From Candidatus Absconditabacterales bacterium (GTDB lineage: Bacteria; Patescibacteriota; Gracilibacteria; Absconditabacterales; Absconditicoccaceae), in assembly GCA_039809345.1 (NCBI GenBank), contig JBDHUW010000005.1, positions 45,105 to 109,104 on the forward strand: 64,000 bases of DNA, in the 5' to 3' direction. Below, piece after piece: positions 31,848 through 33,827 of the stretch; the first letter of the stretch is position 1; each line of letters opens with the position of its first letter. A model generated the notes under the pieces. It was not told the origin of the DNA, did no database searches, and worked only from the letters and a program-made list of their open reading frames with translations. Position numbers and translations under genes: made by a program.

Positions 31848-33827
31848 ATGAGAGCATTCTTTAAGTTTCTCATCAATATGTGATTATTGGCCTTGTGAAT
31901 TTGGCTGATTATCAGATATACATCGATAGATGAAAATATCATCAAGTTTTTTTCTGGTTGAAATGGTGATAGTGATGACAATGGTAATGGTAATGACGTA
32001 GTGGTAGAGCAGAATGTATGTTTGACGCCATGGTGAGTTTCAATCCCCAATGGTTCTAGCATATTTGCGTACAAATCACCGTATCCAAATGATGAGTGAG
32101 TGTGTGAGGAACAAAAAAGAACATGTGAGGAGGGAGTATTGAAGGGAGATTTTGAATTTGGTGCATGTGATGCATTTTGATGAGTAACAGGATGAACTGG
32201 CAATACAAGTGGAGAGTGGCAATTGCCACCTACGTGAGAGGCTTGTATGACGCCACGATGACAGTCGATACAACATGGAAATTATATAGTATCGTATGAA
32301 TCGCCTAGTTCTTGTAAATTTCAAAGAAGAACATGCGTAGACGGACAGCTATTGTGACAGTTTCAGTATAATTATTGTCTGATCACAGCGGGTGCAAGTG
32401 AATGAGGAGAGGCGTGAGATATATCGTACAGCGATGCTCGAAACAACAGCAATGAAGTACACTCTACCCCAGTATTCAATGGTGGTCAGAGTGCAATCAC
32501 TCAGATCCCAAATGACTACTGGAATCAAACATCAAATGGTAAAGTGATAATTCGTGGTACTGCTAGCAATCCAGCTACATTGAGAGATGTTCCTGCGCCA
32601 GTGAAGGAGGACGCATGGAGAAAAAATGATATGACGTATTATGATCTTACGCAAAAATGATGTACTACACCGTGGGGAACATATGTAGATCACAATCAGT
32701 ATGTGATTGGCTACAAGTTTTCTAAAGCTTGAGAATGACAATCATGTACATATGAAAGAAGAAACTGTTTCAATGGTAAGTTGAATGGTACATATACTTT
32801 CCCATCATGTACAGCGTGAGGAAAGACATATACGTATGACTCATTTCAATTTAATAATCAATGAGGAGATAAATATATATGGCCAGACATTCCAACGAAA
32901 CCTACCAATAGAAGTTGCCGTACTCCATGGGGAACCTATGTAAGAAACTGAGATTATATCAGAGCATATAAATATAGTAGTGCTCCTTGGACCAATGGAT
33001 GTGAGGGAGAAATTAGATACTGTCAAAATGGAAGATTGGACTGATCATATGCTAATAAATCATGTACAATCAAAAATCCACCAACATATAGGTGCTATGA
33101 CTGGAACTGTGGAAACAATAACTGGAACAACTCATGTGCATTGCCACGATGATGATACATATCGCATGGTTCATCTGTGACTGCTTACTCTAATCGAAAC
33201 GGACAATGTAGAACAGAAAGAAGAACGTGCAACAACTGATATCTAAATTGATCATACGGACAACAATATTGTGATAGCTATTACAATCCATGATATAGAT
33301 CATGTTCATTGCCTCGATGAGGCTCGATAGGGCATGGATCATCTGTGACTGCATATAGACAGGATGGGAATAGTTGTTTGTCAGAATCAAGGTACTGTTC
33401 TGATGGATACTTGAATGGATCGTATTCAATGCAAAATTGTCAATCACAGCAATACAGAACATGCTCATTGCCACGATGATGATATATATCACACAATGAA
33501 TCTATAGAAGCATTCCAGAATCCTACTGGCCCTTGTACTAAGGAAATCAGAACATGTGTTGATGGTGCATTAAGATGAAGCTTCGCATATGGATCTTGCG
33601 TGCCAGGAAACAATACTAATTTAGATACATATTGAAATCGGGTAGATGCATGATGGTTGGATACGCCACCCCATAGCTCAGATAGTTGCCAGTGAGATGC
33701 TATGGTGAGTTTCGTATGTTTAGAGATGGATGTAGTTACTTGTATGGATTATAGAAAGATTCAGGATGATGGAGCGGTAGTAGGACGTGCAAAGTATGAA
33801 AAGAGAAACGTAACATGTGTTAGATAA
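31848..33827 (+). CDS. secreted/anchored Cys-rich tandem-repeat protein
   Basis: 659 aa. N-terminal TM/signal segment, then seven repeats of about 45-52 aa of the form C-x-[TL]-P-[WR]-G-x-x-[VI]-x-[HN]-[GN]...C-x2-E-x-R-x-C-x-[ND]-G-x-L-x-G-[ST]-[YF]...C. Hand-translated end to end in one frame. Confidence 0.7.
32019..33599 (+). repeat. array of seven protein-level Cys-rich repeats inside the CDS
   Basis: Repeat starts read VCLTPWG, ACMTPR-G-, GCTTPWG, SCRTPWG, SCALPR-G-G-, SCSLPR-G-G-, TCSLPR-G-G-. The DNA has diverged; conservation is at the protein level. Confidence 0.65.

Follow-up and report, generated by a model that had tools for sequence, protein, structure and literature searches.

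The 659-amino-acid (aa) protein described here carries seven copies of a small four-Cys module that is absent from the curated family libraries scanned. Its gene lies at 31848–33827 on the forward strand of a 64,000-nucleotide (nt) stretch of DNA, hereafter the window, from a Candidatus Absconditabacterales bacterium of the Gracilibacteria (contig JBDHUW010000005.1, positions 45,105 to 109,104). With confidence about evenly balanced, we read it as a native single-copy gene whose product is a type II membrane-anchored, disulfide-stabilised surface rod used for binding and not freely secreted.

The coding status of the gene follows from the genetic code in use. Read with table 11, 31848–33827 (+) gives only pieces of 40–66 aa; read with table 25, in which TGA encodes Gly, it is one 659-aa frame that contains 32 in-frame TGA codons and 34 Cys and ends in TAA. 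The frame, on whose integrity a reading of the letters alone (the sequence-only reading) had made its account depend, is thus intact on re-examination. TGA falls at the invariant Gly columns 6, 39 and 43 of the repeat and at the near-invariant column 12, and it interchanges with GGN at the same positions, as had been noted from the letters: from first to last module, column 6 is TGA, TGA, GGA, GGA, TGA, TGA and TGA, and column 43 holds four TGA. Relatives that use the standard code have LPWGG where the window protein has LPR-TGA-TGA. The window gene is a protein-coding gene of code 25, with TGA sitting where standard-code homologs have Gly. The alternative, that the frame arose by chance from TGA being read as sense or belongs to a decaying pseudogene, has in its favour that code 25 drops one stop codon and makes long shadow frames common; one such frame, of 285 aa under code 25 and with no homolog support, runs antisense at 32349–33206 (−). 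On the sequence comparisons it can be taken as effectively refuted, given full-length orthologs of like architecture in at least 20 assemblies, the coincidence of TGA with Gly columns that are invariant in a family defined from bacteria of the standard code, and seven domain matches at 51–60 bits.

The GC content of the gene (38.8%), its GC at third codon positions (29.3%) and the share of TGA among its Gly codons (0.42) all fall inside the 5–95% range of the genome. A recent import was rejected and the gene judged native because these three measures are typical of the genome. It is the sole carrier of the repeat in a genome that is 99.6% complete and is thus single copy. At 5.2% Cys, against a genome median of 0.8%, its product is among the most Cys-rich large proteins encoded there.

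From first to last Cys, each of the seven modules (r1 to r7) spans 45–50 aa, and ten positions (C1, P4, G6, C2, R, C3, G, L, G and C4) are invariant across them. All conform to the spacing C-x(22-27)-C-x6-C-x13-C with the invariant G6, R and G-x-L-x-G. A hidden Markov model (HMM) built exclusively from units of other organisms found exactly seven domains in the window protein, each aligned over HMM positions 1–50 and scoring 51–60 bits (domain E-values from 1e-20 to 7e-18), while the best of 1,000 shuffles of the same protein reached 9.0 bits; the repeats are therefore not a product of chance. Pairwise, the modules are 30–61% identical in protein, 44–59% in DNA and 31–53% at third codon positions, and repeat finding at the DNA level recovered only remnants of 60–75%. 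With protein and DNA identity this low and third positions near random, the duplications must be old. The earlier description of seven old tandem four-Cys repeats is borne out, as is that of an insert of about 90 residues between the second and third modules, which measured 94 aa (178–271).

The window protein had no match to Pfam or NCBIfam at E≤10 and none to PHROGs at E≤0.1, and profile searches of the PDB with 7 and with 64 units found no real sequence relative. The PDB matches returned were spurious: one was to a portal protein (E=1), and the other, to a designed TIM barrel, owed its score to the addition of four 4.6-bit matches. Among relatives, no model covered the repeat in Mesorhizobium sp. 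SP-1A and Aquamicrobium ahrensii (both cultured and annotated in RefSeq) or in a Bdellovibrio metagenome-assembled genome (MAG), and nothing in NCBIfam covered it in five relatives; a Pfam KRTAP7 match on the Mesorhizobium relative (47.6 bits) was rejected as compositional, since no single stretch passes alone. Repeat-bearing proteins carry the public names ‘hypothetical' or ‘uncharacterized', and literature searches on the repeat motif and on Cys-rich proteins from Gracilibacteria or Bdellovibrio turned up no account of it. The earlier statement that the repeat could not be assigned to a type stands, with no Pfam or NCBIfam model covering it in the protein or its cultured relatives. NCBIfam, which includes the TIGRFAM models, does contain Cys-rich tandem repeats of exported proteins from predators of the delta-proteobacterial type, the Myxococcus cysteine-rich repeat (TIGR02232) among them; at E≤10 the window protein matches neither that model nor any other curated bacterial Cys-rich repeat in it.

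The absence from libraries is not a matter of rarity. When the wide search proposed in the sequence-only reading was run with a profile of the seven units, it matched 2,613 protein-cluster representatives at E≤1e-3, of which 452 also passed E≤1e-30. Single proteins carry as many as 19 units, and 1,121 of 1,154 family units keep all four Cys. In genome samples scored with the unit profile at E≤1e-5, the centre genome excluded, the repeat was present in 1 of 400 genomes of the window's own phylum, in at least 38 of 200 of the phylum of a Bdellovibrio genome, in at least 5 of 200 of that of a Myxococcales genome and in 0 of 300 of that of Mesorhizobium among the candidates scored, the counts for large genomes being lower bounds because only 23–34 first-look candidates were scored in these. 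Carriers in the Bdellovibrio-type phylum include the cultured epibiotic predator Pseudobdellovibrio exovorus, whose protein in strain JSS (WP_015469866.1; UniProt M4VBH5; 998 aa) has 15 matched units and E=4.7e-150 against the seven-unit profile. Multi-repeat proteins of this Bdellovibrio-like kind, annotated only as hypothetical, have FNG and LPWGG sub-types of unit and other termini, and lack the anchor, insert and C-terminal module of the Gracilibacteria proteins. Named records with LPWGG-type units are many in Bdellovibrionales/Bacteriovoracaceae, Myxococcales and Bradymonadales; in the candidate phyla radiation (CPR) they come from Moran-, Kaiser-, Yonath- and Saccharibacteria, Paceibacterota, Peribacteria and Gracilibacteria, and further ones from Omnitrophota, Rickettsiales and a few Hyphomicrobiales. 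Queried with the whole protein, 4 of 4 genomes of the same genus, 11 of 20 others of the same family and 1 of 16 other families of the class gave matches.

As to the distribution in CPR, a survey of which was also proposed earlier, almost no other sampled member of the window's phylum has the repeat. With 2,613 clusters and the contrast between the two phyla, the repeat is not an invention of CPR or of this lineage; judged by profile matches, the window's family is an island of presence within CPR, and the module's main home is the Bdellovibrio-type phylum. The 50 alignment columns give no deep tree resolution for the direction or age of any transfer. While a tandem-repeat surface protein is a familiar kind of object, the module itself is undescribed in the libraries scanned, and its skewed distribution, towards Bdellovibrio-type bacteria and a single Gracilibacteria family besides, is a new observation. 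Occurring in more than 2,600 protein clusters and, within the Bdellovibrio-type phylum, in roughly every fifth genome, this disulfide module of 46–50 aa has no Pfam or NCBIfam entry, and a curated model of it would annotate thousands of ‘hypothetical' surface proteins.

How the protein is held at the cell was judged from its N-terminus, where MRAFFK and 16 hydrophobic residues (hydrophobic at aa 4–22) are followed by RYTSIDEN (..WLIIRYTS..). The AlphaFold2 (AF2) model has a helix to residue 24 and a second one at 28–36. Residues 1–24 are conserved at 49.5% among orthologs, compared with 8–38% for linkers, and the RYT/RFTTLDD motif after the helix is kept across them. Inspection of the N-terminus for an A-x-A-like site, for small residues at −3/−1 and for a lipobox found none of these. 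On these sequence features the segment is a probable uncleaved signal anchor of type II. It is rather unlikely that a cleaved Sec signal peptide releases a soluble protein whose string of repeats acts away from the cell: the N-terminus does have the n-region and h-region layout of a signal peptide, and ordinary signal peptides or lipoprotein-like leaders are frequent at the start of family members from other phyla, but here no small residues follow the h-region at −3/−1, the helix runs past it to residue 24, and both residues 1–24 and the motif behind them are conserved, whereas signal peptides usually drift. Of the earlier claim of a secreted protein with an anchor or signal, the anchor is retained, and free secretion is less likely than attachment to the membrane.

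Disulfide formation outside the cytoplasm is plausible because the genome encodes VKOR (75.5 bits; G000:C1:10915-11301) and DsbA-like and DsbB-like proteins. The DsbA-like genes are two Thioredoxin_4 matches (76 and 38 bits). Within the window, a code-25 open reading frame (ORF) of 163 aa at 4072–4563 has a weak match to the DsbB family at 4207–4536 (17.4 bits, or 23.2 bits with neighbouring segments). Together these genes suggest a full oxidative-folding set in a genome of 1.15 Mb.

The fold of the module was approached with an AF2 model of r5 as a single unit, from an alignment of 64 units, which reached a predicted local distance difference test score (pLDDT) of 82.5 and has strands at 14–18, 27–33 and 36–38. 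In this model, bonds between C1 and C3 and between C2 and C4 would fit the strand layout, and a C2–C3 bond would be excluded because these two Cys are placed at opposite ends of one strand. Co-loss of Cys among units was tried as a guide to the pairing and was uninformative, Cys being almost never lost and most apparent losses being alignment shifts. One ortholog (P0005) has an r3 without the last Cys (..SQASVSFQ) and an r4 without the first (..STGRTPRW), leaving two odd Cys in adjacent modules; the double loss may be a sequence error or may reflect contact between modules.

Compared with the PDB by Foldseek, the single unit had no significant match (best E=1.5, probability 0.38, TMq 0.52). 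Among its best 20 matches, five are human beta2-glycoprotein I (beta2GPI), three of these domain V alone, and domain V is at the top. The viral structure library BFVD gave no match of the Sushi type for the module. Matches of the full-length model are meaningless (TMq≤0.08), although a theme of beta2GPI, FN1 and TNFR recurs in them. Sushi_2 of Pfam matched 2 of the 64 units weakly, below the gathering score (best E=0.054), and hhalign aligned beta2GPI domain V (83 of 84 residues verified against PDB 1g4f) with the repeat profile over 30 columns at a probability of 2% (P=0.023), on the pattern HG-x-x-V...C-x7-C-x-[DN]-G-x-[IL]. Like the module, Sushi/CCP/SCR domains (PF00084, PF09014) and the fifth domain of beta2GPI are all-beta, extracellular units of about 45–60 aa with four core Cys and a C-x-x-P start, strung as beads. 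The Sushi family has a conserved Trp between its third and fourth Cys, whereas the consensus of the module there is x-N-G-x-L-x-G-S-Y-x4, without Trp; its C2–C3 spacing of 6 residues is much shorter, and all comparisons lie below significance. The module may be a distant relative of Sushi, which makes this a lead; membership in the family is not established. If an experimental structure confirms the likeness, it would matter for the question of how a fold deemed typical of animal extracellular proteins arose.

Roughly 20 full-length orthologs, 36–57% identical to the window protein, share one architecture: MRAF[LF]KFLIN, the hydrophobic helix and RFTTLDD; r1 and r2; the insert; r3 and r4; from one to six LPRGG-type units; a last unit with VEAY...PCYKEIR; and the C-terminal module (Table 1). 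HMMs of the anchor, insert and C-terminal region match the same 21–23 of 180 proteins, the window protein included, and by this co-occurrence it belongs to a Gracilibacteria ortholog group. In the unit tree, r1 (support 98/94), r2 (92/85), r4 (97/92) and the last unit each show positional orthology between genomes. The middle units multiplied independently from lineage to lineage, and those of genomes G004 and G001 include near-identical copies. Conservation among orthologs falls from r2 (71%) through r3 and r4 (60%) and the anchor to the C-terminal module (44%) and then the linkers. Between two genomes of the same genus, the window protein is 41% identical, compared with 69–74% for PheS and FtsW; by this comparison it evolves about twice as fast as its two neighbours. 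A search of an index of 5.8 billion proteins with the C-terminal module returned only the window protein itself, its word index limiting such a search. At 33738–33758 (the region of aa 631–637), this module reads DDGAVVG where most orthologs have [ND]DCCI[AST]G and a second subgroup has C-x7-C. The joint absence of the two Cys suggests that, where present, they are bonded to each other in a local disulfide that can be dispensed with.

Table 1. Coordinates of the repeat gene, the parts of its product and the two adjoining genes, in window positions.
Feature	Position	Strand	Basis or remark
Whole gene	31848..33827	+	659 codons plus TAA, code 25, 32 TGA=Gly; start matches ortholog N-termini MRAF[LF]KFLIN
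N-terminal basic tip and hydrophobic helix, aa 1–24, probable uncleaved signal anchor	31848..31919	+	Kyte-Doolittle peak 2.1 at aa 4–22; AF2 helix 2–24, pLDDT 83–85; 49.5% ortholog conservation
Repeat r1, aa 58–107, TPWG type	32019..32168	+	r1 units across genomes form one clade, support 98/94
Repeat r2, aa 133–177	32244..32378	+	Most conserved unit, 71% identity to orthologs
Insert, 94 aa, aa 178–271	32379..32660	+	Ortholog-specific motifs VNYG, LPNDYWN, YDLTQKGC; pLDDT 22–28, no confident fold; ortholog group only
Repeat r3, aa 272–321	32661..32810	+	Unit alignment, profile match, unit tree
Repeat r4, aa 357–406	32916..33065	+	Cross-genome clade, support 97/92
Extra Cys pair C416-x4-C421, r4–r5 linker	33093..33110	+	In part of the orthologs
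Repeat r5, aa 430–475, LPRGG type, copy-number-variable kind	33135..33272	+	Single-unit AF2 model, pLDDT 82.5
Repeat r6, aa 486–531, LPRGG type	33303..33440	+	55% occupancy among orthologs
Repeat r7, aa 539–584, distinct last unit IEAF...PCTKEIR	33462..33599	+	Clusters with last units of other genomes
Cys-rich C-terminal module, aa 593–659	33624..33824	+	pLDDT 79–91, best-predicted part of the ectodomain; ortholog group only
pheS, upstream neighbour	30738..31763	+	Pfam tRNA-synt_2d, 268 bits; 84-nt gap
ftsW/rodA-family gene, downstream neighbour	33886..34986	+	Pfam FTSW_RODA_SPOVE, 273 bits; 58-nt gap

From these parts we infer the topology, the C1–C3/C2–C4 pairing, the rod shape and the binding function, as follows. 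The N-terminal helix would keep the protein in the cytoplasmic membrane, N-terminus in and C-terminus out, and the VKOR/DsbA-like system would oxidise its 34 Cys outside the cell. The seven small all-beta four-Cys modules, with short linkers of Gly, Asn and Ser, would make an extended string, by which the conserved Cys-rich C-terminal module is kept at a distance from the membrane. With r1–r4 and r7 each predicted to have a conserved surface of its own, these modules may be more than spacers, and the middle LPRGG-type unit, gained and lost between species, may set the length. The most likely target would be a structure in the envelope or on a second cell, the protein acting for its host-dependent bacterium as an adhesin or receptor-binding protein.

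A binding partner on another cell would agree with the dependence on a host ascribed to these bacteria, with the domain company of the repeat and with the fast evolution of the protein. The distribution of the repeat, common in the Bdellovibrio-type phylum with its epibiotic predator Pseudobdellovibrio exovorus and not seen among the candidates scored in that of Mesorhizobium, gives a binding role indirect support. All the modules to which the repeat is joined in other proteins are extracellular or surface ones: SBBP, Sortilin/BNR propellers, Flg_new, Cadherin-like, He_PIG, PG_binding_1 and a weak TSP1-like repeat. The last was seen in Aquamicrobium ahrensii (L042:420-2993) and in a Bdellovibrio sp. 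MAG (L055:3-2774), where W..WG.CSASCGGGTQ.R directly follows four-Cys repeats; it resembles thrombospondin type 1 repeats (TSP1_ADAMTS 17.7 bits in the former, below the cut-off) and may be a bacterial TSP1-like module. In kind, the window protein is close to the bacterial tandem-repeat surface proteins and adhesins built of Big/He_PIG, Flg_new or cadherin-like repeats, which are likewise attached to the membrane or wall, string many small beta modules before a distinct terminal module, vary in copy number between close relatives and diverge fast; He_PIG, Flg_new, Cadherin-like and SBBP modules are moreover among those fused to the four-Cys repeat in other bacteria. The adhesin repeats differ in being Ig-like, about 80–100 aa long and usually free of Cys, whereas the window module is half that size and has two predicted disulfides; no sequence relation between them was detected.

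Several points weigh against the reading as an anchored binding rod. With a mean pLDDT of 52, the AF2 model of the whole protein is poor and confident only in the N-terminal helix (83–85) and the C-terminal module (79–91), and the disulfide pairing and rod shape were derived from the secondary-structure string alone. The module has no significant structural neighbour, and because of this function cannot be transferred by homology. The link to predatory lineages is a correlation from uneven samples. Finally, the repeat is found in only 1 of 400 genomes of its own phylum and is missing in 9 of 20 of the same family; being nearly absent from the one and lacking in many of the other, it cannot be a general need of the episymbiotic lifestyle.

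An array of protease inhibitors or decoys tethered at the surface, protecting the cell in the manner of eukaryotic multi-headed disulfide-rich inhibitors, would also consist of small tandem disulfide-rich modules, and predators and epibionts do live amid lytic enzymes. Some non-significant Foldseek matches are indeed inhibitors (tick tryptase inhibitor, chagasin), but at E≥5; the module lacks the pattern of a canonical reactive-site loop, Pfam gave no inhibitor family even at E≤10, and the partners of the repeat in other proteins are adhesion-type domains and neither enzymes nor inhibitors, all of which makes such an array highly improbable. A bolder version of the binding role would take the four-Cys module for an undescribed, distantly Sushi-like adhesion domain in a toolkit for cell-to-cell attachment shared by bacteria whose life is spent on other bacteria, namely Bdellovibrio-type predators and one code-25 Gracilibacteria family, with the window protein as the host-attachment rod of an episymbiont and its C-terminal module as the host-recognising tip; we consider this doubtful. 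The single-copy, fast-evolving and probably membrane-anchored rod is in itself a concrete candidate for the poorly understood attachment of uncultivated CPR bacteria and Gracilibacteria to their hosts.

The gene adjoins pheS and ftsW, as claimed earlier, and this position raises the alternative of an envelope-structural or division protein: a bitopic product made together with FtsW that would serve as spacer, ruler or scaffold in the wall or septum and not as a binder of foreign cells. All three genes lie on the same strand with short gaps, no terminator-like site was found between them, and the conserved transmembrane helix could touch partners in the membrane. With X for the repeat gene, the order CBS-pheS-X-ftsW-orf267 is kept in a genome of the same genus, and CBS-pheS-X in the group of 36% identity. 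In other genera of the family, however, neither pheS nor ftsW occurs within 6 kb of the proteins with the anchor and repeats. The gene is also missing from 9 of 20 genomes of the family and from 15 of 16 other families of the class, which would be odd for a core division factor, its product diverges about twice as fast as FtsW, and an AT-rich stretch with a TATAAT-like element just upstream may give it a promoter of its own. An envelope-structural or division role is on balance unlikely. Functional coupling to ftsW was accordingly downgraded, the synteny being shallow and the full order kept only within the genus; the earlier proposal of an adhesin or binding protein remains a reasonable inference, and the part of its argument drawn from ftsW carries little weight. 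In this genome pheS is not followed by pheT, the gene for the beta subunit, which lies on another contig (G000:C3:38198-38743); in the genus and in the group of 36% identity, the repeat gene fills the slot downstream of pheS.

Orthologs in GCA_017992195.1 (L002) and a related assembly appear in NCBI records only as ‘hypothetical protein' fragments of 72 and 149 aa, evidently because code-25 genomes were annotated with table 11, and other sources translate TGA as Trp, giving LPRWW for LPRGG. Outside the window, the genome also encodes a Cys-rich family of six paralogs, unrelated to the four-Cys repeat, in two tandem clusters (G000:C4:105588-113121 and G000:C1:59369-62917), whose members have 518–601 aa with 24–35 Cys (4–6%) and begin with M[QH]YTSRE.YE, without an N-terminal hydrophobic segment.

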